This document shows, one piece after another, positions 9,388 through 62,529 of a stretch of 64,000 nucleotides of DNA (the stretch's first letter is position 1; each line of letters starts with the position of its first letter). The position numbers were made by a program, and so were the translations under genes. Below the pieces are notes generated by a model. That model was not told the DNA's origin and searched no databases. It saw only the letters and a list, made by a program, of their open reading frames with translations. The stretch comes from Candidatus Babeliales bacterium (lineage in GTDB: Bacteria > Babelota > Babeliae > Babelales > JBFXEV01). The stretch lies in contig JBFXEV010000001.1 of assembly GCA_050179755.1 (NCBI GenBank), positions 777,994 to 841,993 on the forward strand, given 5' to 3'.

Positions 9388-11664
9388 ATGAAACGATTAT
9401 TCTTGGCTCTGCTTGTTTGCAGTGCATCACTTAATGTTTTCTGTGCGGGCACTCGCAATTTGATAATGCCAATTGATTGGGGTAAAGAAACTATTGAGAA
9501 TGAATTTAGAAATCAAAAATATACTTTCCCTCATGCTGAATTTGGGCCGCCAACGATGGCACTTATTATGGCCTTAATTGAGCAAGCAGCTCCCATTATT
9601 GTCAGTTCATCAACGTGGAAAAATGCCGTTGCTCGCGCGCAAATTTTTAAAGATGCGGTAAAGGGTGCCAATCTTTCTTACCTCAAGAAGTATCCTCTGT
9701 TTTCTAACCCTGAAAATATAAAAGCTTTTGCACAAGACCTGAGTAATGGTTATGATCCATCTGCTGATTTAATGCTACGAGGTATTGACTTGAAAATAGT
9801 GGATTATTATTACGCATATCAAGTTTTCTTTGCAAATAATCCGGCATTTAAGCCACAAGAATGGATTGTTAAAAAACTTTCGGATTATTTGTATCTATTA
9901 ATACCACTTTCGTATATGCAAGAAGTCCAGGCGCGCCACGATACGCCTGAAACTGTTGAATATGAAAAAGGTAAGCCACAAAGCCCACAATTTAACACGC
10001 CTTTATCAAAACGAGAGCAGCTTATTGGTATGAAATTTGAAAAATTTCCTGATATACCAGCCAAGACATTACTAGATATAAATGCGCATGTGCTGCAGAT
10101 AAACCATGATAATTATAAGATGTTAGTTCCTAAACGTGCATATAATATGGTACAACGTGCTATAGGCTTTAAATGGTTTGATTTGTTAAAAGGATTTTTA
10201 TTCGGTCAGCACGTAATTCATACAGTTTCGCAACTTTTTGTAACGCACACAGATCTTAAGTTTCCGGGTGGCAATAGAGAAAAAACAGATGTAAACGAAA
10301 CTCATTTTTTGCACGAGTGGCTTGTCTATCTTGATGGGCATGGTTCTGTTTCTCAACCAGGCGCTTTGCAGCCCTTTATTGCAGAGCATAAAGGGGGATT
10401 TTCGGCCCAAGTAGGTTATACAGCAGGCCTTGAACAGGGAGCGTTTCGTGAACTGCTTGGTTTTTTTAATAATCGTGTAAATACCGGGTCTTTTTTTTAT
10501 AGTTCATGTTATTCCGGTGGTCCACACTTATTTAAATTTTTTGAACATCATTGGGATTATCCACTCACACAAAAAGTTGGTAAAAAAGTGCAAGTGCAAA
10601 GATATAATATTGCAGTGCCTGATGTTTTTAATTATTTAATCATTGCTGCCAATCAATTTTATACGGTGACGTTTACAGGACTTTTTCACTATTGGTCTGA
10701 TAATAACACACATTATAACAAGCTTCCTTTAAGGGGACACATAAAAATTATTCCATTAGAGCGAATTATACCTCAGGATCGTGAAAGATATAAAGAATAT
10801 TTAAAACAAATGGATAAAATTAGTGGACTTATGTTTAGAGAATACTTTAAAAGCATGGCCCAATTATTGCATCCAGACGTAAGAATGTTTGCCGCACAAA
10901 GGGCCTCAAAGAAACAAAAAGTAGTAAAAATGCCGTCATTAAAAGAAGAGCTTATTAAAACTATTTCTTATGTACATCAATTTGATCTTTCAAAAAATTA
11001 CATGGTTCCTGCTATTCGATTACCATACACTGAATGGTTTGTATCTCTTGGCGATTTAGGAGCACAAATACAATTAGGTTCGCAAGAAACAGAAAAAATA
11101 AGAAAAGAGCGCGAAGAGCGAGAAGCTGCAGCACGTTCTTTACTTCCTAAAATTATACAAAAAGGACTTCCTGCCAAAGTAAAAGAAAGCCTTAAAAAAT
11201 TGCCGCTTGAACAGCAAGGCCACTATATTAAAGACCTTACTGGCAAAGAAAGATTCATGTGGAAAAAACAAGATATAGCTGCGCAAGATGCTGCTGCAAA
11301 AGAAAAAGAACGCAAAGAAAAAGAACGCAAAGAAAAAGAACTTCTTGAGCGCATGCAAAAAATGCGCCAAGAACAAGAAGAGCGTGAAAAGAAAAAACAA
11401 AAGCCACCAATTGTGCCGCAAGTAAAACCGCAAGATAAAGTGCCATTGCAACCATTGCCTACGCAACCCACTATTCAATTGCCAGCGGCACCAACGGGAG
11501 GAAAAACGCCTACTACATTACCAGCCAAGTTGCCTCCACCGCCATTTATGCAAGGGCCAGCGCAGCAGCCGGTTCCCTCAAATTTGCAGCAGGCACTAAA
11601 GCGACTTGAAAGGTCATTGTATTATATGGTTGATGCATTGTTAGTAGATGAAAATGGTAAGTAA
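9388..11664 (+). CDS. Secreted protein with putative caspase-hemoglobinase-fold (clan CD) catalytic dyad, paralog 1
   Basis: Signal peptide; VYLDGHG and YSSCYSGG 56 aa apart; coiled coil and Pro/Gln-rich tail. Confidence 0.65.
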   Translation: MKRLFLALLVCSASLNVFCAGTRNLIMPIDWGKETIENEFRNQKYTFPHAEFGPPTMALIMALIEQAAPIIVSSSTWKNAVARAQIFKDAVKGANLSYLKKYPLFSNPENIKAFAQDLSNGYDPSADLMLRGIDLKIVDYYYAYQVFFANNPAFKPQEWIVKKLSDYLYLLIPLSYMQEVQARHDTPETVEYEKGKPQSPQFNTPLSKREQLIGMKFEKFPDIPAKTLLDINAHVLQINHDNYKMLVPKRAYNMVQRAIGFKWFDLLKGFLFGQHVIHTVSQLFVTHTDLKFPGGNREKTDVNETHFLHEWLVYLDGHGSVSQPGALQPFIAEHKGGFSAQVGYTAGLEQGAFRELLGFFNNRVNTGSFFYSSCYSGGPHLFKFFEHHWDYPLTQKVGKKVQVQRYNIAVPDVFNYLIIAANQFYTVTFTGLFHYWSDNNTHYNKLPLRGHIKIIPLERIIPQDRERYKEYLKQMDKISGLMFREYFKSMAQLLHPDVRMFAAQRASKKQKVVKMPSLKEELIKTISYVHQFDLSKNYMVPAIRLPYTEWFVSLGDLGAQIQLGSQETEKIRKEREEREAAARSLLPKIIQKGLPAKVKESLKKLPLEQQGHYIKDLTGKERFMWKKQDIAAQDAAAKEKERKEKERKEKELLERMQKMRQEQEEREKKKQKPPIVPQVKPQDKVPLQPLPTQPTIQLPAAPTGGKTPTTLPAKLPPPPFMQGPAQQPVPSNLQQALKRLERSLYYMVDALLVDENGK

Positions 11665-11682
11665 AAAAATTATGGAGTAAGT

Positions 11683-13770
11683 ATGAAGAAGTTTATATAT
11701 CTGGGTGTGCTGTGCCTTTTTGCATCACAAGTATATGGTACCGGTTCACGTCACTTAATGCTTATGATGAACTGGATGGATGAAACGCTTAATGATGGTC
11801 AACAATTTGGTGCATTATCACAAGTAACCATATCTGCGCTGGAGCAACAAGCAGGCCCGGTGATTATTACATCGCAAACATGGCGCTCAATTATGGGGCG
11901 GGGAACTGATCGGAAGTACCCTGATTCAGATGTTTCTTATGGTGTATTTTATGGTTCTAATCCTTCATTTAGATTTAATGACTGGATTATAAAAAAACTT
12001 TCAGATTATTTGTATCTTTTTGTGCCCAAAAGTTATCTTAATGCTGTAAAAGCTAAAAAAGATAGTTTCAATCAAGATTTAAACACTGTTACTGCACTCA
12101 CGCAAGTTGATCGTGAACTTGGCATGAAGGTGAGTAAATTTCCTGACATGTCACAAAAGGATTTGTTTAATGTTGGTTATCATAAGGCGTATATTGAGGT
12201 AAAAAATTATAATAATATGATGCGTAAAAATGCTCATACAACCATGCAGCAATTGATTAGCAGTGGTAATGAACATATTGCAGAAATTTATTTTTTCAGC
12301 CAACACGTGCTGTATATGCTTGGCAAATTATTAATTACACGCGCGGATCTTATTTCTAAAATTGATCCACGCAAAAATATTGCGCAATTTAAGGAAGATA
12401 CAGAAAAAAATGAAGCATTACTGCTCCATGAATGGCTTGTGTATCTTGATGGTCATGGCAGCCCTTCCGATACGGGTCAAATACAACCAATTATTATTAA
12501 TAGGCCAGGTTATTATCCAGGCCCAAGTAATATTGGTATAACTGCCGGGCTTGAACATAATAGTTTTCAGCAACTTCTTAAATTTTTTAATGGCAGCGTG
12601 GTAACGGGCGGCATGCTCTATGCAAGCTGCTTTGCTGGTGGGCAACATCTTGCAAAATTGTATGAAAAAGAGTGGGATGCTTTTTTGAGAAATCCTCAAA
12701 AGCAAGTAAAAAAAGATAGCTATAATTATTTGATTTTAACAACAAATATTTGGTATACAGAAACAGCATCAGCGGTGCTTGATTTTGTGAAGTTTCCTGC
12801 TTTTTTTAGTAGCTTACATGGATTTATACATCAATCACTTAAACCCGCAGCAAAAAAATATGTAAAAGGCAAAGCAAAACAACCGGTTAAAAAAGGATCC
12901 ACGTTTGAAGTTACTGCACAACTTGCAGCGATTATTAGAAATGTGAGCGAGTTTGATTTAAAAAAACGTTGGCAAGTGCCGGGCGTGCGCTTTCCTTATA
13001 CAGAATGGTTTGTGGCAATAGATGACCCTACGTTGCCTATTATTTTTGAAAAAAGTAGTAATAGAGTGGTGCAAAGCAAAAAGAAATTTGTGCAAGAAAA
13101 AAAGACTACTGCCTTGCATGAAGCTATTCGCAAAAAGTATGCTGGGCAGCAAATTGCGCAAGAGCTGGCTGATTTGGCAGAACAACGCCGAAAAGAACTT
13201 GAAGCAATTCGCGTAAAAGAAGCCAAAGCAAAAGAAAAAGAATTATATGCGGGCATCATGAAGTTGCAGCAAGTACAAACTGATAAAACATCACAACCTC
13301 CAACTGCTGCGCCAACGCCGCAAAAACCACCAGTTCAAAAACCACCAGTTCAAAAACCACAGGCGCAAAAGCCACAGCAACAAGAATCAGAAGCATTTAT
13401 TCCGGAATCATATAAGCCACAAGCGCAAAAACCACAACCAACTGCAGTATCTGGCAAACTTAAAAATGCTTTATCAGAATTACAAAATGCACTCGGCCAA
13501 CTTGAAAATAAACTCTATTATCAACCAAAACCAACGTATCAGCAACCAACGTATCAGCAACCGGCATATCAACCTCAGTATCAGCCTCAACAAGAACCTG
13601 AATATGAGCAAGAATATGAAGAGGAAGAGCCTCAAGAAGGTGAATATTATGAAGGTGATTATTATTATGAAGATGACTATGAACAAGATGGCGATAACTA
13701 CGGCCAAGGCGATTACTATTATTATGATGATGATGGTTCAGATTCAGAATATGAATACTATTATTACTAA
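11683..13770 (+). CDS. Secreted protein with putative clan CD catalytic dyad, paralog 2
   Basis: Shares WIxKKLSDYLYL, HEWLVYLDGHGS, TAGLE, SCxxGG and RxPYTEWFV with 9388..11664; Tyr/Asp/Glu-rich tail. Confidence 0.65.
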   Translation: MKKFIYLGVLCLFASQVYGTGSRHLMLMMNWMDETLNDGQQFGALSQVTISALEQQAGPVIITSQTWRSIMGRGTDRKYPDSDVSYGVFYGSNPSFRFNDWIIKKLSDYLYLFVPKSYLNAVKAKKDSFNQDLNTVTALTQVDRELGMKVSKFPDMSQKDLFNVGYHKAYIEVKNYNNMMRKNAHTTMQQLISSGNEHIAEIYFFSQHVLYMLGKLLITRADLISKIDPRKNIAQFKEDTEKNEALLLHEWLVYLDGHGSPSDTGQIQPIIINRPGYYPGPSNIGITAGLEHNSFQQLLKFFNGSVVTGGMLYASCFAGGQHLAKLYEKEWDAFLRNPQKQVKKDSYNYLILTTNIWYTETASAVLDFVKFPAFFSSLHGFIHQSLKPAAKKYVKGKAKQPVKKGSTFEVTAQLAAIIRNVSEFDLKKRWQVPGVRFPYTEWFVAIDDPTLPIIFEKSSNRVVQSKKKFVQEKKTTALHEAIRKKYAGQQIAQELADLAEQRRKELEAIRVKEAKAKEKELYAGIMKLQQVQTDKTSQPPTAAPTPQKPPVQKPPVQKPQAQKPQQQESEAFIPESYKPQAQKPQPTAVSGKLKNALSELQNALGQLENKLYYQPKPTYQQPTYQQPAYQPQYQPQQEPEYEQEYEEEEPQEGEYYEGDYYYEDDYEQDGDNYGQGDYYYYDDDGSDSEYEYYYY

Positions 13771-13795
13771 GGTTGGTTTTTTTAAATAAGTAACG

Positions 13796-13828
13796 TAAGG
13801 GGCCTGCAAAAAAGGCCCCTTATCTTTT
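13796..13828 (+). terminator. Rho-independent terminator
   Basis: taaggggcct...aggcccctta stem followed by tcttttt. Confidence 0.8.
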
Positions 13829-14109: not shown

Positions 14110-15963
14110 ATGAATTACAAATCACTCGTATTTTCATGTCTTGTTTTACTATGCTTAGGCCTTGCAGTGCGCAAGATCCGTAGCATGGAAGAAGTAATAA
14201 TGCCACAAGAAGCAGTAGAGCAAGCAGCAAGCTCAGCAGTACCGCCGCTCGCGCAACTTGCCATTCAGTCTGCAGTTGACCATATTTTTTCTACTGCAAA
14301 AACAATACAAGATATCCATGCTTTGGTGTTGCAATTACCTTATGCAGTGCAAGTGCCATTAGCTCTTGCCCTTGTGCAAGATGATCGTTATACAGGAACT
14401 GCTTTTAATAAACTGCAACTTGCGTATCACGTAAGTAAAGAAGATCAATATATACAGCGTGATCAGCTTGATGCGCTTTTTAATGAAGTGGTTAAAGGCA
14501 TTAACCCTTGCGATTTTGTATATAAAAAATTTGAAGAATTATTACCGGGCTATGACCCAAGCGTAGTTACCTTACGTGATGAACGTTTAATTAAAGCAAT
14601 TTTGCGCAAACCAGACTTACGTCTTGCCGATGTGCATCTTAAGCAACCAATGCTAACTATTCAGCCCATGCCCCAAGGTGCGTATAATGAAGAAATAAGC
14701 CCCGATGGTTCAATGTTTGCCTTTAGTATGGAAAATAATACGTTGGTTGTATGGAACATACAGGAGAATAAACCAGTATCTGTGATTAAACTGCCAGATA
14801 GTTTTGCGTTTGATGCGCCAAAGGCATGGTCGCCAGATTCAAGCATATTAGCTCTTGCTGATAATAGAGGTAACGTTTATTTTTGGCATCTTGGTGCGCA
14901 TGCGCAGCCGACAGTGCGTTTGAAAGTAACGGGTATGCATCCTCAATTTCATAATGATAATGAGCCTGATGAAGATGATCCCTATATTGCCAATTTTTTA
15001 AAATTATCTCCAGAAGATAGAACACTTATAAATGAGCTTGAGCCTATTAATTGGGTAGATGCTGAGCGTAACGTTGCATTAGTCTATACGCGGCAACCTG
15101 AACAAAAAAGAGGAATAACCTGGTTTATTAAAAGAGATTTGAATATTCGGCCACAACACTTTAAAGCTGATGACCAGCACGCGTTATACAGTATGTCATT
15201 TAGCCCAGATGGTTACTTTTTGGCAACAGTTTCTGATCTTGGCCGCGTGCGTGTATGGGATGTAAGAAATCTTCTCTATGGAGAGCAAGAAGTGTTAGAG
15301 CCTATGCCACCTTTATTTGATCATGAGTTTGGAGGGCGAACGCCAGTGGCGGTAGTATTAAGCCAAAATGCCAAAAGGCTTGCGATAGCACCGATCCAAA
15401 ATGAAATACACGTATATGATGTGCAAGAAGGCAAACTTATTGCGCGTGCTATGACAGATTCATTTGATACAGGGTATGTGGGCCTTGGTGCGCATGCACT
15501 AGCATTAAGTGCCGATGGCAAATATGTTGCTTTTACTGGCGAGGGTTACTACCATTTGTTTGATATTGATGAACAAGCATCTGTTTTATATTTTGACCGA
15601 GGGCATATAAGCCCTACGCAAGTATTTAGCCCCGGCCAGTCATTTAAGGGGGATGGTGGTTTTGTAGCGTGTGGATTAGAGAAAGAGCATCCATTAGTCG
15701 TTTACGGTATGCGATCGCGTGGTAATTTAAACGTGAAATTTCCATTTAAAAATGAGTTTGATGCACCTTCAGTGTTTAGCGGTGATGGCACGTACTTTGT
15801 GTCGCGAGGCCTTGAAAATTATAACATATGGCAATTGCCAGTGAACTATTTAAAAGGAAATCTAACATGGCAACAATTGCGGGACGTGCTTGCGCGCGCT
15901 TGCTTACAAGTTATGCCGGCAATGCCGGCACATGGTGCGCATGTTGAGCAAGGGAGGAACTAA
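14110..15963 (+). CDS. Secreted WD40/beta-propeller protein (start likely MNYKSL at 14110)
   Basis: ISPDGS..VVWNI, WSPDSSILALAD..YFW, FSPDGYFLAT..RVWDV, LSADGKYVA repeats. Confidence 0.88.
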   Translation: MNYKSLVFSCLVLLCLGLAVRKIRSMEEVIMPQEAVEQAASSAVPPLAQLAIQSAVDHIFSTAKTIQDIHALVLQLPYAVQVPLALALVQDDRYTGTAFNKLQLAYHVSKEDQYIQRDQLDALFNEVVKGINPCDFVYKKFEELLPGYDPSVVTLRDERLIKAILRKPDLRLADVHLKQPMLTIQPMPQGAYNEEISPDGSMFAFSMENNTLVVWNIQENKPVSVIKLPDSFAFDAPKAWSPDSSILALADNRGNVYFWHLGAHAQPTVRLKVTGMHPQFHNDNEPDEDDPYIANFLKLSPEDRTLINELEPINWVDAERNVALVYTRQPEQKRGITWFIKRDLNIRPQHFKADDQHALYSMSFSPDGYFLATVSDLGRVRVWDVRNLLYGEQEVLEPMPPLFDHEFGGRTPVAVVLSQNAKRLAIAPIQNEIHVYDVQEGKLIARAMTDSFDTGYVGLGAHALALSADGKYVAFTGEGYYHLFDIDEQASVLYFDRGHISPTQVFSPGQSFKGDGGFVACGLEKEHPLVVYGMRSRGNLNVKFPFKNEFDAPSVFSGDGTYFVSRGLENYNIWQLPVNYLKGNLTWQQLRDVLARACLQVMPAMPAHGAHVEQGRN

Positions 15964-16334
15964 TGAAAAAGAGTTTATACATGGTGCTTGCAGCTTTGAT
16001 CGTGGTGAAAACTGCATATGCAGCGCAGCCTACACGCATTCAAGTGCATACGCAAGAAGAAATTGATAAGTACGTGCAAGCAAATCCAGTGGTGTTTTTA
16101 TTAGTTTCTGCAAAATGGTGCCCACATTGCAGAGCGTTGCAACCAGTGGTTGATAAACTATCACAAGAATTAAAAAATATATTGTTTCTGGATATTGATT
16201 CAGAAAATAAGTCACTTGCACGTAAATATGCACCACAGGTATTTCCAACGATGCAGATTTATAAAAATGGGGAAGTGACCGAGACTATTGAAGGAACGCG
16301 ATCTCACGATCAATTAAGAGATTTAATGAAGTAA
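15963..16334 (+). CDS. Exported thioredoxin-family protein (WCPHC)
   Basis: Signal peptide AYA; WCPHC; FPT cis-Pro. Confidence 0.9.
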   Translation: MKKSLYMVLAALIVVKTAYAAQPTRIQVHTQEEIDKYVQANPVVFLLVSAKWCPHCRALQPVVDKLSQELKNILFLDIDSENKSLARKYAPQVFPTMQIYKNGEVTETIEGTRSHDQLRDLMK

Positions 16335-16362
16335 AAGTTGTAAAACATAAAAAGGAGATAGT

Positions 16363-16725
16363 ATGAAAAAGTTTATTTTGGCAGTAATAGTAGTTTTAGG
16401 TGCGCAGTCAAACATGCAAGCTGCATATAGTGAAGTTTCTTCAGCAGCAGATTTGAATTCTGCATTGCGCGGTGATAAATCTATTGTAATGTTTGGTTCT
16501 AACTCATGCCCACATTGCAGGCAAATGAAACCTCTCTTTACGCAAGCTGCACAGGGCAGCACTGCAACATTTATTTTTGTAGATACCAATAGATTATCAT
16601 CTGTTGCTGATCAATACGGTATTCGTGGCATACCCACTTTTAAATTATTTAAAAATGGCAGTGCTGTGGGTTCTCGCACAGGCAGCATGAGCAAAGCTGA
16701 ATTGACAAGTTTTGTAAATCAGTAA
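16363..16725 (+). CDS. Exported thioredoxin-family protein (SCPHC)
   Basis: Signal peptide; CPHC; YGIRGIPTF. Confidence 0.9.
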   Translation: MKKFILAVIVVLGAQSNMQAAYSEVSSAADLNSALRGDKSIVMFGSNSCPHCRQMKPLFTQAAQGSTATFIFVDTNRLSSVADQYGIRGIPTFKLFKNGSAVGSRTGSMSKAELTSFVNQ

Positions 16726-16735
16726 ACGGAATAGC

Positions 16736-17110
16736 ATGAAAAAATTTGTAATAATTGCACTCATTACCGTAGCAATATTTGGCCAACCAGCGCAAGCTGC
16801 AGGGGTTATGGAACCTAAAACAATGCAAGAATTTAGATCGCAAGTGGGTTTTGGCAAGGTAGCAATATTTTTGGGTACCATGGGCTGCCGACATTGCCGT
16901 GCTTTCTTGCCAAAATTTAGAGAGGCAGCTGCAGCAAATAATAATACAAAGTTTATTTTTGTAGAACTTGCAAGCCCACAGCTATCTGATTTATCTCATG
17001 AATATCGCACGCAAAGTCCAACGCTTGTAGTGCTTAAAAATGGCACTGAAGTAAGGAGAGTGCCAGCGACTGATTTAAATAAACAATCTTTACAAGCAGC
17101 GATTCAGTAA
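16736..17110 (+). CDS. Exported thioredoxin-family protein (GCRHC)
   Basis: Signal peptide AQA; CRHC; SPTLVVLKNG. Confidence 0.85.
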   Translation: MKKFVIIALITVAIFGQPAQAAGVMEPKTMQEFRSQVGFGKVAIFLGTMGCRHCRAFLPKFREAAAANNNTKFIFVELASPQLSDLSHEYRTQSPTLVVLKNGTEVRRVPATDLNKQSLQAAIQ

Positions 17111-17131
17111 TAAATTATAAAGGAATATACT

Positions 17132-17794
17132 ATGAAAAAATTATTATTAATGGCAGCAACATTATTGTTTGTACAAACAGTGGATCTTGTTGCAATGGAA
17201 AAAATAAAGCAATTAGTGGCAGTTAAAGGCAATCGTGCTGACATTAAATCGGTAAAGGAATTTGAAAATATTCTTCGTACTAATGATTCTGTGGTATTGC
17301 TTGTTTCAACGACCTGGTGTGGGCCTTGTAAAAAGGTAAAGCCGATTATTGAAGAGCTTACACGTGACTTGCCAAATGTTATGTTTGTGCATATTGATGG
17401 TGATAATCAAGATCTTTCATCATTAGTTGAAAAATACGCATCGCAAGGTTTTCCAACAATTAAATTTTTCAAAAAAGCACAAGAAGTTCAAGAAGTTATA
17501 GGGGCAGAAACAAAAGAGAAGTTGCGAAGCATAATTCAGCAAAAATTAGCTGGCGGCACGCAAGCTGTTGTAACAAAAAAACCAATCACTGCCGCGCAAC
17601 CAAAACAACAGGTGATAGCAAAACCGCATCCCGTTATAGTCAAGCCTGCGGCAGTTGCTGTTAAACCAAAAGCTCCAACACTGCCTGCAAGTTATGGAAA
17701 AGCGCCAATGTATACATATTCAGAAGATGAATCTTCATCTGGTTATTCATCTGAAGGTGAAAGTTCATCAGGATATTCTTCGAGCGAAGAATAA
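17132..17794 (+). CDS. Exported thioredoxin (WCGPC) with Pro/Lys linker and Ser/acidic tail
   Basis: Signal peptide then MEK; WCGPC; GFPT; tail with two ESSSGYSS units. Confidence 0.9.
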   Translation: MKKLLLMAATLLFVQTVDLVAMEKIKQLVAVKGNRADIKSVKEFENILRTNDSVVLLVSTTWCGPCKKVKPIIEELTRDLPNVMFVHIDGDNQDLSSLVEKYASQGFPTIKFFKKAQEVQEVIGAETKEKLRSIIQQKLAGGTQAVVTKKPITAAQPKQQVIAKPHPVIVKPAAVAVKPKAPTLPASYGKAPMYTYSEDESSSGYSSEGESSSGYSSSEE

Positions 17795-17856: not shown

Positions 17857-19635
17857 TTATTCACCGGCAAGTATAAAGTCAGAAATAGCCCAACCAACAA
17901 GCACCGCTGGAGTTCCTGTGTTACCATCAGGTACGTATGGCAAGATTGAATTATCAGCTACACGTAGACCTTTAGTACCAAACACACGACCATGCGGATC
18001 AACCGCAGCTACATCAGGAGTCAGACCAGCTGGGGTTGAAGACGTATAGTGATGGGATTGGAAGGTAGTAGCCAGAAGGTAATTTTCAAGTGCGGCTGTA
18101 TCATTAATGACATCTAGTGATGGTTGCAAAAGTGTCCATGTTTGCCCATTAGGCGCAGGATTATTTGAAAAATATTCAGTTAGATCTGCGACGAAGTTTT
18201 GGAATGCTTGAACGCATGTAGCCAAATCTGCCGATGTTCCACCAGGCCCCTCTGTATCACCGAAATAGTTTCCACTAACAAGTGGTATTTTAAATGGATC
18301 ATCATTCTGAATTGCGATAGTTCCTACGCTTACAGGATTTAAATGAGCAGGTCCTAAAAGCATTAAATCAGGAGCCAGTTGGACAGTAACCCATTGCATT
18401 TCACGCGGTGCAGATTGAGGATCCCCTACAATAGGTGTAATCGATGGTAAAAAGGCAGTTGCTGAATAGAGAGCCCACGGTTCAGTTGGAGGGACGAGTA
18501 CTGCACCTGGAATGGAGAACAGTGCAAATGGAATCGTATGATTGTAAAAGAATCCCACATTATCATTCTCAACACGTACCGGTACACCGGCAGCATTAAG
18601 TATGTCTTTTGGCCCGATACCATTACGTTGCAAGAACTGTGCACTTTGGAATCCAGCAGAAACAATTACTTCTTTGCGAGCAAAAATCTCATGGCATTCG
18701 CCATCTTGTGTATAGCGAACACCAATTACTTTATTTTTTTTGTTCCAAAGAAGATCAATTGCAGTTGCACGTAAATGCACTCGCAGTTTTCTGCCATTAA
18801 CTCCAAAACCATTAGGAGTCATTACATCAGAATTTAAGAAGGCAAATGCAGTGCTTTCTCTCAAGAAAATATCACCCACTGGCCGCACTTGATTATCACT
18901 TCTGAGACTTGTACCAATAGGTGTTGTTGGGTCATTGTAATCATCAATTATAGGCGAATTGCTGGCTGCTGCCATTGCGTTAGCCAGATAGTGATTATCT
19001 TCAGTGGGAGTAAATGCCAGTGCTACATTAGTCCATGGGCCATTTGTGCCACGTGCAGGGCTAGCAACAAAAGGTGCTATAAACGTTTCAAGCTTTTTGT
19101 AACGTGCAAGCGTTTTGTCAAGCGACCAATCGGGTCCAAGTAAATCGGCCATGTTTGACCAGTAGGTATTACTTCCACGTACCACGATCATGCCATTAAT
19201 AGAGGAACTACCGCCCAGTAGCCTTCCTGCTGTCCACTGAAAGCTTCTATTATCCATTTGCGGTTGAATGACTTGTTCACCTTGCCAGAAGTAATAGGGG
19301 TAATAATTGGGCAACAAATTCAGGTAACCACTTGCAGGAACTTCAATCACTTCATCATTATTGTTATTATCCCCAGCTTCAAGACCGATAACTGAGGTTT
19401 TCTTATCATTTGTTAAGCGATTGGCAATCACAGCTCCAGCGGTACCCATGCCAATGATAATATAATCGGCATCGTAATGCTTTTTTTTCTTATGTTTTGG
19501 TTTGCAAGGCTTAATGGGTTTTGTGCAGCAAATTTTTGTTTGATCGGCAAATAATGCTACTGGTGAGAATGCTTGCAAGAGCAAACTCCAGGCAAGAATT
19601 CTTGCTATTTTTTTTTGAATGTTTAGTTTCATCAT
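17857..19635 (-). CDS. Secreted GMC (glucose-methanol-choline) family FAD oxidoreductase 1
   Basis: DYIIIGMGTAG, LEAG, GRLLGGSSSING, EVIVSAG, HHY, GLRVADNS, GNT (His/Asn pair); N-terminal signal peptide. Confidence 0.95.
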   Translation of the reverse strand: MMKLNIQKKIARILAWSLLLQAFSPVALFADQTKICCTKPIKPCKPKHKKKKHYDADYIIIGMGTAGAVIANRLTNDKKTSVIGLEAGDNNNNDEVIEVPASGYLNLLPNYYPYYFWQGEQVIQPQMDNRSFQWTAGRLLGGSSSINGMIVVRGSNTYWSNMADLLGPDWSLDKTLARYKKLETFIAPFVASPARGTNGPWTNVALAFTPTEDNHYLANAMAAASNSPIIDDYNDPTTPIGTSLRSDNQVRPVGDIFLRESTAFAFLNSDVMTPNGFGVNGRKLRVHLRATAIDLLWNKKNKVIGVRYTQDGECHEIFARKEVIVSAGFQSAQFLQRNGIGPKDILNAAGVPVRVENDNVGFFYNHTIPFALFSIPGAVLVPPTEPWALYSATAFLPSITPIVGDPQSAPREMQWVTVQLAPDLMLLGPAHLNPVSVGTIAIQNDDPFKIPLVSGNYFGDTEGPGGTSADLATCVQAFQNFVADLTEYFSNNPAPNGQTWTLLQPSLDVINDTAALENYLLATTFQSHHYTSSTPAGLTPDVAAVDPHGRVFGTKGLRVADNSILPYVPDGNTGTPAVLVGWAISDFILAGE

Positions 19636-25031: not shown

Positions 25032-26789
25032 TTATTTTCCTGCACGGATAAAATCGGCAATTGTCCAGCCAATTAATACTGCAGGCGTTGCGGTGTTGCC
25101 GTCTGGTATTACAGGCAAGATAGAAACATCTGCAACGCGTAGACCTTTTACGCCAAACACGTGGCCATAAGGATCAACAACGCCATTTTCTGGTGACAGA
25201 GCAGCTTTTGTTGTTGAGCAATAATGGTGCGCTTGAGAAGCATTTGCTTTAATGAAGGCAATAAGAGCGTCTCGATCCATCATTACATCTTTGGTAGGAG
25301 CTATGAATGTCCATGTACCTTTAGGAGATGGATTTGCTTCAAAATAGTTTTCTAAGTCTAAAGCAAAGTTTTGATACGCGTCCGCCAACTTATCTATATC
25401 TTCAGGATTACTCAACAAGTTTGCGTCAGCAAGAGGAATTTTGAGTGGATCATCATTTTGGATTGCAACTGAGCCAACACTTTTTACACGCATTAATCCT
25501 GCACCAAAGAACAAAAGTTCGTCACTCAGTGGTGTAGAAATCCATTGAATATCACGCAACGTATTATTTGGATCTGCAGGTGGTGTTACGGCAGGTAACA
25601 TAGCACCAGGTCCCCATACTGCCCATGGTTCCGCTGGTGGAATTATTTCTGTGCCTGGAGGTATTTGAATTAAACTACCGATGTAGGTATGATTTACTAG
25701 TTCGCCCACATGAGGATTATCTACACGCACTGGCACGCCAGCTGCATTAAGAATGTCTTTTGGTCCAATGCCATTACGTTGTAAGAATTGTGCACTTTGG
25801 AAACCAGCACACACAATAACTTCTTTACGTGCAAATAGAGTGTGGCATTTACCATCTTGCGTATAACGAACGCCAATTACTTTATTATTCTTCCAAATGA
25901 GATCAATGGCGGTAGATCTTAAATGCACTCTTAATTTTCTACCATTTACACCAACACCATTTGGAGTCATAACAGTTTCATCTAAGAAAGCATAAGAAGT
26001 TGCTTCGCGTAGAAATGAGCCATTTTCTATACGTTCTTGAGTATCCCATTGCAAGAAAGCGCCGTTAGGTGTTTCTGGATTATTAAAATCAAGAACCGGT
26101 GGCATACCACTCACCACAGTCATTGCATTAAATAAATATTGATCATCTTCCGTTGGATTAAATGGTAATGCTATATTAGTCCACGGCCCGTTAGTGCCTC
26201 GAGCAGGGCTTGTAGGAAAGGGAGCAATGTAGGTCTCTAATTTTTTGTATCGTTTGCGCGTTTTTTCAAGTGACCAATCTGATCCAAGAAGCGCTTCTAT
26301 TTCCGACCAATATGCGTCAGATCCAAGCACGACTTGCAGGCCATTAATAGAGGTTCCGCCACCAAGAAGCCTTCCTGATGACCACGCGTATGATTGGCCA
26401 TCAAGTTGGAATTGTGGAACACCCTCGCCTTGCCAGAAATATTGTGGATAAAAGAATGGGAACAAGAAGAAATATCCTTGTTCTGGAATTATAATTACCG
26501 GGTCTTGGCTGTTATTATCACCTGCTTCAAGACCAATCACTGAAGTTTTTCTATCTTTAGTCAAGCGATTGGCAATCACCGCTCCAGCTCCGCCCATGCC
26601 AATGATAATGTAGTCTGCATCATAATACTTTTTGTTCTTGTGTTTTGGTTTGCAAGGTTTAATTGGTTCCGTGCAGCAAATTCTAATTTGCTCGGCGAGT
26701 AATGTAATAGGAGAGAGTGCTTGCAAGAGAATACTTGCAAGCATTGTTATTGCTAATTTTTTTTTGAAGCATTTATGCATTGTTATCAC
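25032..26789 (-). CDS. Secreted GMC family FAD oxidoreductase 2 (paralog of 17857..19635)
   Basis: Same motif set (GMGGAG, GRLLGGGTSING, HHY, GNT); shared ICCTxPIKPCKPKHK segment. Confidence 0.95.
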   Translation of the reverse strand: MITMHKCFKKKLAITMLASILLQALSPITLLAEQIRICCTEPIKPCKPKHKNKKYYDADYIIIGMGGAGAVIANRLTKDRKTSVIGLEAGDNNSQDPVIIIPEQGYFFLFPFFYPQYFWQGEGVPQFQLDGQSYAWSSGRLLGGGTSINGLQVVLGSDAYWSEIEALLGSDWSLEKTRKRYKKLETYIAPFPTSPARGTNGPWTNIALPFNPTEDDQYLFNAMTVVSGMPPVLDFNNPETPNGAFLQWDTQERIENGSFLREATSYAFLDETVMTPNGVGVNGRKLRVHLRSTAIDLIWKNNKVIGVRYTQDGKCHTLFARKEVIVCAGFQSAQFLQRNGIGPKDILNAAGVPVRVDNPHVGELVNHTYIGSLIQIPPGTEIIPPAEPWAVWGPGAMLPAVTPPADPNNTLRDIQWISTPLSDELLFFGAGLMRVKSVGSVAIQNDDPLKIPLADANLLSNPEDIDKLADAYQNFALDLENYFEANPSPKGTWTFIAPTKDVMMDRDALIAFIKANASQAHHYCSTTKAALSPENGVVDPYGHVFGVKGLRVADVSILPVIPDGNTATPAVLIGWTIADFIRAGK

Positions 26790-57888: not shown

Positions 57889-58563
57889 ATGAAAAAAAGA
57901 TTTATTTTTCTATTGCTTTTTTCTTGTACTGGTTATTTGTGTGCATTGGAAACACAACTTAAAAATCTTTCCACAGCATTATCGGAGCTTCAAAGAAAAT
58001 TATTCGTGCACGCTCCAGTGACATCTGATGACGCGCAAAAACTTACATTAACGGCATTAAAAACAAATTTAAAAAATATTTTGAAAGATATTATTGATCC
58101 GCATCGCAATTTTGCCAATGAACAAGAACGTATAGCTTTTTTTCATTTTATTATTGAGCAGTCTTTGAATGCTGCCAAAGTTATGCAAGTTATTGCTGAA
58201 AAACAATATACAGCAGCTGATTTAAATGAGTGGTATAAGAATGATACGCTCAGTCAAAAGACAAGCGGTGCTCTTACACAACTTGATTATAAACACTATG
58301 AAACGAGGCATGATTGGCGGCCATTGCCACCACCACCGGGTCAAACAAAAGTAAGCACCAATTTTGATGATGCTCGCGCGCTCAAAGAAAATTTATTAGA
58401 TGTTGCTCAAAACATTATTGATCTTAATGTTACATTTGATCGCACGCAAGTAAAACAAAGCTTTAAAGTTATTTTTGATGAAGCTCTTAATGCAGCAATG
58501 GCTGAATGGCCAACTGAAAAAAAAGAATCTTTTAGGCAGAAAATTACTGATGTTCGTTCTTAA
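57889..58563 (+). CDS. Secreted hypothetical protein, Leu-heptad/RPLPP family
   Basis: Signal peptide; LETQLKNLSTALSELQRKL; WRPLPPPP. Confidence 0.8.
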   Translation: MKKRFIFLLLFSCTGYLCALETQLKNLSTALSELQRKLFVHAPVTSDDAQKLTLTALKTNLKNILKDIIDPHRNFANEQERIAFFHFIIEQSLNAAKVMQVIAEKQYTAADLNEWYKNDTLSQKTSGALTQLDYKHYETRHDWRPLPPPPGQTKVSTNFDDARALKENLLDVAQNIIDLNVTFDRTQVKQSFKVIFDEALNAAMAEWPTEKKESFRQKITDVRS

Positions 58564-61231: not shown

Positions 61232-61831
61232 GTGAAGAAATTGTCGATCATTATTTTAACCCTTTTATTTGTTCAGCCAGCATATGGCTTAGAGCATGAG
61301 CTTAAAAATCTTGCTGCGAGTTTAACAAAACTTGCACAAGATTTAGGTGGGGGCGCACCACCACCTCCGCCAACAGGTCAAATTCCTGCATACCCTCAAC
61401 TTACACCACAAGAAATTGCTGAGTTGGAGAAAGATCGGCCCAAACGGCCATTGCCGCCACCACCAGCAGCAAATGACAAAGTGCGCACTATTAAAGCAAA
61501 ATTAGACGCAATTTTTAATGAAACAGACGTTGCTGTTTTAACAGATGCAACTAATCGTCTGGATCGTTCTTATCTATTTAATTTAGAAAAAGTGGGTGCA
61601 CCGCAAGAAGATATTCTTAAATATAAAGAACTGATGGTCAAACATACGAAAAAAAGAATAGATACTCTCTATAATGAAGTTACTGCAGGACGCCTTAAAT
61701 TTAATATACAGTTTGCAAATAGTTTGTTACGTGTTTTACAAGATAATGGCGTATCTGGTGATGAATATGATGCTTATTTGCAGAAAGTTGGTGAAATGGC
61801 TGGTAGAAACTGGGGGTACGTGGGAAATTAA
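61232..61831 (+). CDS. Secreted Pro-rich protein, Leu-heptad/RPLPP family
   Basis: RBS aggag + GTG; signal peptide; LEHELKNLAASLTKLAQDL; KRPLPPPP. Confidence 0.8.
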   Translation: MKKLSIIILTLLFVQPAYGLEHELKNLAASLTKLAQDLGGGAPPPPPTGQIPAYPQLTPQEIAELEKDRPKRPLPPPPAANDKVRTIKAKLDAIFNETDVAVLTDATNRLDRSYLFNLEKVGAPQEDILKYKELMVKHTKKRIDTLYNEVTAGRLKFNIQFANSLLRVLQDNGVSGDEYDAYLQKVGEMAGRNWGYVGN

Positions 61832-61961: not shown

Positions 61962-62477
61962 ATGAAGAAGCTACCTTTTCTTATTATCGCCATGTCGTGT
62001 ACATATCAGTCATCTCTACAGGCTGATCAGGTGCTACAGCAAAATCTTGTAGATCTTACGCGTGCATTGCAAACATTACAGCAAAGGTTACCGCGTAATG
62101 GCACAAAAAGGCCGTTACCAAAGGGGCCTGCTCAATTAGTGAGTGAAGAAGAAAAAAATCAACTCATTGCCATTCTAAAAGATCTTAATTTAGAAAAGCA
62201 AGCAACTGTTGACGATACACAAGAAGTTACGCAAGCTGATTTTCTTAAAGATCTCAAGTTGACTCTTGATGAAATTTTAAAAGGTTTTAATGCAAAAACG
62301 CATGCATATGTTGGGTATCCAAATTATAAAAATGAATTTCTAAAACGCCATTTAGGCGATTTTGATGTTGCTCTTAAATTATTAAAAGCAGCGACACCCC
62401 AAGATGCTAGAATTCCCTATTATGAATCTTGGCGTCCCCATTTAGAAAAAGCGGTAGGCACATTGCCAGTAAAATAA
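61962..62477 (+). CDS. Secreted protein, Leu-heptad/RPLP family
   Basis: Signal peptide; LQQNLVDLTRALQTLQQRL; KRPLPKGP. Confidence 0.78.
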   Translation: MKKLPFLIIAMSCTYQSSLQADQVLQQNLVDLTRALQTLQQRLPRNGTKRPLPKGPAQLVSEEEKNQLIAILKDLNLEKQATVDDTQEVTQADFLKDLKLTLDEILKGFNAKTHAYVGYPNYKNEFLKRHLGDFDVALKLLKAATPQDARIPYYESWRPHLEKAVGTLPVK

Positions 62478-62529
62478 AATGGCTTAAAAGCGTAATTAAA
62501 AGAACGAAAATATTTGAGGGAGTTTGGTT

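Follow-up and report, generated by a model that had tools for sequence, protein, structure and literature searches.

Two adjacent genes, P0001 and P0002, occupy positions 9388..13770 on the forward strand of the window analysed here, a 64,000-nucleotide stretch of contig JBFXEV010000001.1 from a Candidatus Babeliales bacterium (Babelota; genome of 1.53 Mb in a single contig, 39% G+C). As tandem copies of a family that spans the phylum, they probably specify exported cysteine endopeptidases of clan CD that would cut specific proteins of a protist host, a reading to which we assign a probability of roughly 0.55. The range of the family within the phylum, its duplication and its dyad residues are observed; that its members are active clan CD peptidases is, judging from models and sequences, highly probable, and an effector role is plausible. 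The family is real, large and apparently unnamed, and it appears to sit in clan CD, closest to families C13 and C11 while falling in neither by profile. Legumain (C13) and clostripain (C11) are likely distant relatives of the pair.

Catalytic residues and their conservation

Gene 1 (P0001, 758 amino acids, 9388..11664) and gene 2 (P0002, 695 amino acids, 11683..13770), both on the + strand like every feature located below between 9388 and 13823 and both predicted clan CD cysteine proteases, are recognizable as paralogs by BLASTP (E 3e-83), with 160 of 410 aligned core residues identical. The predicted catalytic histidine of gene 1 is His318 (10339..10341) and its predicted nucleophile is Cys374 (10507..10509), 56 residues apart, and the corresponding residues of gene 2, His258 (12454..12456) and Cys316 (12628..12630), are separated by 58. 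The open reading frames (ORFs), these codons and both spacings agree with what a model-generated first-pass annotation of the same DNA had recorded. Furthermore, the pattern hydrophobic-GHG...[ST]C[YFH]xxG is restricted to four of the 1310 ORFs of the genome, exactly the four family members, and the His/Cys pair in P0001 and P0002 is therefore not a chance occurrence.

Conservation was read from an alignment of 150 rows, comprising the pair and the top hits, in P0002 numbering. His258 and Gly257 are kept in all 150 members and Gly259 in 148, while Cys316 is kept in 149 and Gly320 in 147; conservation of the dyad in homologs, on which the first-pass annotation had made its proposal depend, is thus nearly complete. 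Asp occupies position 30 in 145 of the 150 rows (Asn in P0002 itself) and Glu34 is found in 137, whereas within the family-specific insert Trp101, Pro115 and Gly147 are retained in 149, 147 and 149 rows, respectively. The dyad is also present in 35/35 catalytic stretches, which were picked by the motif pattern. The family median of the His–Cys spacing is 36, and the longer distances in the pair stem from a loop insert. In one subgroup (L032:2632-5439 and L018:1723-4455) a coiled-coil insert of about 100 residues lies between His and Cys, with spacings of up to 175, which indicates that the dyad loop tolerates very large inserts. Rare copies have lost the dyad: P0084 has Trp in place of Cys, and both residues are missing from an ORF of L025.

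The residue immediately before the cysteine, taken from the unfiltered column of 150 rows, is Ser in 111, Thr in 38 and Ala in 1; Ser, Thr or Ala also precedes it in 156/156 proteins matched by a pattern that requires one of them. Two residues before the cysteine the family varies (Ser 33, Asp 21, Thr 17, Asn 15, Leu 13 and others; 156 of 158 proteins), with Ser in P0001 and Ala in P0002. The first-pass annotation had taken the loss of the metacaspase Asp at this position as a sign of altered specificity; since the residue varies so widely, it is no family determinant and predicts no specificity.

Predicted fold and structural relatives

The catalytic domain of P0002 (residues 21-448, 11743..13026) was modelled with AlphaFold2 from 112 alignment rows at a predicted local distance difference test score (pLDDT) of 90.8 and a predicted template modelling score (pTM) of 0.92, and a full-length relative, P0017, reached 91.3 and 0.90. 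The P0002 model opens with strand 22-29, a helix, strand 60-63 and a further helix; an insert at about residues 76-232 (11908..12378), specific to the family, separates the second strand from the strand at 250-257, which leads directly into His258. Helix 292-305 and strand 307-314 follow, Cys316 lies two residues past this strand, and strand 350-353, two helices and strand 434-436 complete the domain, a succession that we take to be the caspase order. A clan CD trait is visible in the model, in that His ends one strand and Cys stands just past the next, with one helix between them. The catalytic domain of P0001, including its inserts, spans residues 21-556 (9448..11055), with bounds taken from the alignment to P0002. 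The long N-terminal region that the first-pass annotation ascribed to both proteins dissolves into this domain and its conserved insert: no separate N-terminal domain remains, because the first strands of the fold start at residue 22 and because the model aligns with legumain and clostripain from its residue 1 onwards. An N-terminal prodomain was likewise rejected, as the fold starts right past the signal peptide.

In a structure search of the P0002 model with VIA-align over 48,161 chains, ranks 1-11 are all taken by clan CD or CPD-like (cysteine protease domain-like) proteins, with Z falling from 8.0 to 6.2, and unrelated proteins begin at Z 6.1. These ranks comprise C11 proteases, legumains, clostripain, Tce1, glycosylphosphatidylinositol (GPI) transamidase and the TcdA protease domain, among them 6n9j (Z 8.0, root-mean-square deviation (rmsd) 4.3, 192 aligned), 5h0i (Z 7.4) and 9qpe (Z 7.2, rmsd 3.5, 154/178 aligned). 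C11 (Z 8.0) and C13 (Z up to 7.9) tie as the closest fold in a second look at the structure matches. All 36 rows listed by Foldseek are clan CD, none of them below E 0.026, and giant-virus metacaspases come first in a viral structure library (E 0.024). The P0017 model gives the same picture, and identity to all structure matches is about 10%. Each fold score is modest, and the clan CD assignment draws its weight from the way these scores concur with the motif positions. The clan CD assignment made in the first-pass annotation is supported by the predicted caspase-type alpha/beta sandwich, by the clan CD matches and by the sequence link of one relative to C13. Atlas look-ups for the core gave caspase and clostripain leads below the bar, from poor single-sequence models, and SAVED-CHAT structure matches lie at Z 6.1-6.9. 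No gingipain is found among the 50 structure rows listed, which does not exclude a likeness to gingipain (C25). A homodimer prediction for the P0002 core scored 0.00 and is used neither for nor against.

Comparison with known protease families

Scans against Pfam and NCBIfam gave no protease family match for the pair and no family named for its core. For C13 (PF01650), the pair shows no match at E 1 and none of 59 relatives exceeds the curated cut-off; the sole match among 101 genomes falls in a protein that itself belongs to the family (family-profile E 2e-52), at E 1.1e-4 for one genome and about 0.01 over all 101. Profile positions 92-165 span its His222 and Cys263, which are 41 apart, and the pairing of 73 residues with 74 profile positions suggests that the register holds across both. 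A 133-residue piece of this member scores 23 bits (E 6.7e-5), the PF01650 cut-off being 22.8. The structural likeness to C13 (legumain, GPI transamidase; 4aw9, 5h0i, 6ysa, 7wld) extends over the whole catalytic domain: residues 1-421 of the P0002 model align to residues 27-275 of 4aw9 over 205 of its 263 residues (Z 7.0), 6ysa reaches Z 7.9, and a signal peptide is a further point in common. The family departs from C13 through an additional stretch of about 160 residues within the domain, through the absence of an apparent legumain-type helical C-terminal prodomain in the pair and through the low identity of about 10%.

For C11 (clostripain, Bacteroides C11; PF03415), 6n9j, 6mzo, 6nag and 9cip match at Z 8.0, 7.8, 7.7 and 7.3, respectively. 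PMC12445089 describes secreted bacterial enzymes with His-Gly followed by a small residue and Cys, a layout that the family shares. Unlike C11, the family places Ser or Thr rather than Ala ahead of Cys in 155/156 members; neither the pair nor the scanned relatives match PF03415, and no profile-profile signal was obtained. The PF03415 matches listed for the genome are genes other than the family, and the possibility that the pair represents the C11 peptidases named in Babelota papers was rejected, those being separate genes. Canonical clostripain occurs in 101/101 genomes, often in at least two copies and with up to 12 matches, though the genomes are strongly reduced; in G000 its loci are C1:178322-180668 and 522880-523614.

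C14 (caspases, metacaspases, MALT1 paracaspase; PF00656) shares the strand and helix order of the family model, and MALT1 tops the Foldseek list (E 0.026) as giant-virus metacaspases top the viral one. However, the Z values are lower (5-6.3), PF00656 matches neither the pair nor the scanned relatives, none of 41 genomes has a match over the cut-off, and the family is exported according to a signal-peptide heuristic, whereas C14 enzymes are cytoplasmic. One weak PF00656 hit in the 41 genomes proved to be a helicase-like ORF unrelated to the family. C14B metacaspases carry Asp two residues before the catalytic Cys; it is found in 21/156 family members and not in the pair. With no true PF00656 match, C13 as the sole sequence link and C11/C13 as the best folds, the metacaspase frame of the first-pass annotation was abandoned, and a metacaspase with an altered pocket was rejected as a candidate.

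The C80-type toxin domains and the effector Tce1 of type VI secretion systems (T6SS) (3ho6, 3pa8, 3fzy, 9qpe) match at Z 5.7-7.2, with 154 of 178 Tce1 residues aligned, and set a precedent for the proposed role as clan CD-like domains acting on eukaryotic cells. Tce1 is described in PMC13323088. These domains are small parts of large toxins or else cargo of type III secretion systems (T3SS) or T6SS, and they have no Sec signals, whereas the family consists of stand-alone genes with Sec-type N-termini; Pfam C80 matches neither the pair nor the scanned relatives. A CHAT comparison with hhalign used a single sequence and is uninformative. Library rows for FapA and SMC were discarded, since they fall on the coiled-coil insert of one subgroup, and six plasmid records contain no reference C14 or C13 proteins.

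Family size and distribution

This genome carries four family copies, namely the tandem pair and two distant copies elsewhere. With P0002 as the sole query, 11 proteins were recovered and 11 of 41 genomes gave matches. A profile of 22 trimmed cores matches 154 of 251 genomes of the phylum, a few of them marginally, and finds no family match in the other 97; 124 of 189 good-quality genomes and 17 of the 21 families of the phylum are covered. Clustered at 50% identity, its hits form 1,795 groups, of which 1,446 remain at E 1e-10 and 739 at 1e-30; the best 150 of the 1,795 were listed, without taxonomy. In six genomes chosen for many candidates, the copy number reaches 14 distinct genes in G123, 13 in G132 and 9 in G061, many of them in tandem, and P0012 (1427 amino acids) holds two family cores in one chain. 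No relatives were found in plasmids or phages, nor in viral contigs, which were searched with close-clade patterns only; other bacterial phyla were not searched directly.

The suggestion of a possibly undescribed family has gained weight, as no Pfam or NCBIfam name exists, members are called "hypothetical protein" wherever they are named, and the family extends far beyond the two paralogs that the first-pass annotation described. No description of such a family was found in the literature searched, subscription papers lying outside it. The main text of PMC4776705 contains neither "protease" nor "peptidase". For Chromulinavorax, PMC6561590 lists C11 among the secreted peptidases and gives 44% signal peptides. 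For Babela massiliensis, two clostripains are named and "caspase" is absent from the main text of PMC4378268, whose supplements contain only the two clostripains and give zero for the caspase COG. Supplementary file 9 of that paper lists the tandem genes Babela_gene_280 and Babela_gene_281 (741 and 776 amino acids) as "hypothetical protein" in cluster 21, with no COG, no best hit and no protease call; their first 400 residues show the family motifs up to GHG by eye, which makes them apparent members.

Domain architecture and export signals

A further beta-rich domain follows the core in 136 of 158 proteins and is missing from the pair. It was modelled confidently in P0017 (residues 430-635), other instances being G000:C1:704628-707438 and 626008-628020, and atlas look-ups, which relied on poor single-sequence models, yielded no usable fold match for it. 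A quick tree built from 66 cores, with P0007 left out and other members subsampled one in three, places the 15 full-length members without the beta domain in one 17-row group (Shimodaira–Hasegawa-like approximate likelihood ratio test (SH-aLRT) 99) that also holds two short, probably truncated rows. Since the members lacking this domain group together, the pair belongs to a derived clade, and this clade has swapped the C-terminal beta domain for a charged tail that is first Lys/Glu-rich and then Pro-rich. The tail of gene 1 (11056..11583) is Lys/Glu-rich, likely as a coiled coil, and Pro-rich thereafter, while that of gene 2 (13027..13458) passes from Lys/Glu-rich to Pro/Gln-rich; gene 2 terminates in an acidic, tyrosine-rich end (13528..13767) with 22 Tyr, 15 Glu and 10 Asp in 80 residues, consistent with the low-complexity tails reported in the first pass. 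Acidic ends are also present in P0003 and P0004, and that of P0002 presumably recalls substrates of eukaryotic tyrosine kinases or sulfotransferases. Among 59 members scanned, ankyrin repeats end three and leucine-rich repeats (LRRs) end two, and no C-terminal enzymatic cargo domain was detected.

Signal peptides were judged by a simple heuristic. The N-termini of both proteins (about residues 1-20; 9388..9447 in gene 1 and 11683..11742 in gene 2) pass it, as the first-pass annotation had read them, and so do 119 of 157 family members, compared with 288 of 584 long ORFs of the genome. The genome also encodes two secretins.

Both proteins carry a 15-residue leucine-rich helix motif, at residues 733-747 of P0001 (11584..11628), where it is terminal, and at residues 593-607 of P0002 (13459..13503), and the motif is common to unrelated exported proteins. 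A fixed pattern finds 13 hits in 1144 genome ORFs, three of which are its source proteins; nine of the 13 lie either just past the signal peptide or within 40 residues of the C-terminus, regions that make up 16% of positions. A matrix seeded from non-family terminal hits retrieves 19 of 1310 ORFs, 13 of them with terminal hits, all with signal-like N-termini and nine of them the seeds. Within the family, 27 of 158 proteins score, 22 at the C-terminus. This distribution suggests that the leucine helix may act as a tag for export, secretion or membrane targeting. Directly past the signal peptide, the motif that ends P0001 also opens a cluster of unrelated, Pfam-less proteins, encoded at 57889-58563, 61232-61831 and 61962-62477 of the window and by the ORF starting near 62524.

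Proposed mechanism and competing explanations

A caspase-type alpha/beta sandwich is predicted right past the signal peptide, with His at a strand end and Cys past the next strand; next to them lies the conserved insert, some 160 residues long, which may form a cap or exosite. By analogy with clan CD chemistry, Cys would attack the peptide bond and His would serve as acid/base; residues 30-34 of P0002, past the first strand (11770..11784), are candidate active-site helpers, with Glu34 as a possible third active-site residue. A single P1 residue would set the cut site; it is not readable from sequence and probably differs among paralogs. The anatomy of the proteins suggests that, after Sec export to the periplasm, they would leave via the type II secretin, with the terminal leucine helix as a possible guide, and that their differing C-terminal regions (beta domain, repeats of the ankyrin or LRR type, charged Pro-rich tail) would determine which substrate or site they reach. 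Babelota live inside protists according to PMC4776705, PMC6561590 and PMC4378268, and type II secretion parts are encoded in TM6 genomes (PMC4776705). A host-conflict role is favoured because the patchy presence, expansions, repeat fusions and dead copies of the family contrast with the universal clostripains. A bolder version, in which a phylum-wide, fast-duplicating, legumain-related arsenal that escaped every family library searched enters the host via type II secretion with the leucine helix as the tag for that step, is doubtful at present; if true, it would constitute a major protease effector family of Babelota and a new clan CD family with its own cap domain.

Several observations weigh against a secreted, clan CD, host-directed enzyme. 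At full length the C13-scoring member reaches 19.6 bits, below the 22.8 cut-off, and only one of the 35 other catalytic stretches touches C13, at E 0.16. Profile searches of PDB sequences gave no match to a solved clan CD chain, and hhalign against 25 Babelota clostripains gave no signal (probability 0.1-0.2%). A Z of 8 or less lies in the range that the tool itself calls common, and the best Foldseek E is 0.026. Eukaryote-type repeats occur in only 5 of 59 scanned members, in a set enriched for long proteins. Finally, signal peptides are found on about half of the long proteins of the genome, so they support export to the periplasm at most and do not single out the pair as effectors; host lysis and cell-death control, which the first-pass annotation had put forward, are pointed to by nothing in particular.

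The modest Z-scores and the identity of about 10% to all matches could also reflect a mere common alpha/beta sandwich in which His and Cys perform other chemistry, such as metal binding or non-peptide acyl transfer. This is very improbable, given that three separate searches put clan CD first, that the alignment extends over the entire catalytic domain of legumain and that the motif positions and the C13 match agree. If the fold and dyad are as predicted, the enzymes might still be retained in the periplasm or at the surface and act on exported proteins of the bacterium itself, maturing, releasing or cross-linking them in the manner of GPI transamidase and ligases of the legumain type (C13) or of the sortase PorU (C25). 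By sequence the closest link leads to C13, the top folds include GPI transamidase and peptide ligases, about half of the proteome is exported and might need processing, and a Sec signal alone ends in the periplasm. However, a housekeeping enzyme would be expected to be universal and low-copy, like clostripain (101/101), whereas 97 of 251 genomes gave no match to this family and others carry up to 14 copies, and repeat fusions fit foreign targets better; such a maturase is unlikely, although it ranks above the remaining alternatives.

Exported digestive proteases that supply amino acids from host protein, with paralogs covering different P1 residues, would suit an organism such as Chromulinavorax, which has apparently no complete metabolic pathway and many secreted hydrolases (PMC6561590), and the variable residues near Cys and past the first strand suggest varied pockets. 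Clan CD enzymes are, however, P1-strict endopeptidases according to PMC12445089 and PMC11121540, which also set out the clan criteria, and a large conserved insert and variable binding tails are needless for bulk digestion, which renders this explanation rather improbable. Less probable still is cleavage of the protein itself or of its neighbouring paralog, an autoprocessing as in toxin domains that would free the C-terminal part as active cargo: the matches include Tce1 and the protease domains of TcdA/TcdB and RtxA (Z 5.7-7.2), C-terminal regions are modular and P0012 has two cores, but the scanned members lack C-terminal enzymatic cargo and the tail of the pair is low-complexity. Cleavage of specific host proteins by exported clan CD endopeptidases thus remains the preferred reading.

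Babelota are widespread obligate protist parasites that remodel and leave their hosts, and much of their large secretome lacks annotation. For at least 1,795 distinct proteins, found in about 60% of sampled genomes, the present reading proposes an enzymatic function and names the catalytic residues; since a tandem pair is apparently encoded by Babela massiliensis, which is cultured in Acanthamoeba, it is testable in a cultured model. It would add a family to clan CD, which is valued for strict P1 specificity and, in C13, ligase activity; as the chemistry is already known, it is no new kind of system.

Genomic neighbourhood

Gene 2 starts 18 bases past gene 1, and a terminator-like hairpin of 11 pairs (13795..13823) follows it; the short gap and the hairpin indicate that the pair is likely one two-gene operon, closed by this hairpin. 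Promoter-like sites are at chance level (17 vs 16.4). The neighbourhood in the window includes ankyrin, WD40 and thioredoxin genes, and the succession of an ankyrin gene, an aldolase, the pair, a WD40 gene and thioredoxins recurs in G001. Past the WD40 gene, a tandem row of four thioredoxin-like genes occupies 15963-17794; their products have signal-like N-termini and CxxC motifs and might keep exported cysteine enzymes reduced; G001 has four similar genes in the same place, one apparently without intact CxxC spacing. Two paralogous ORFs at 17857-19635 and 25032-26789, labelled GMC-oxidoreductase-like from reading the sequence, have signal-like N-termini and a short Cys/Lys-rich stretch, and they flank a riboflavin synthesis cluster.

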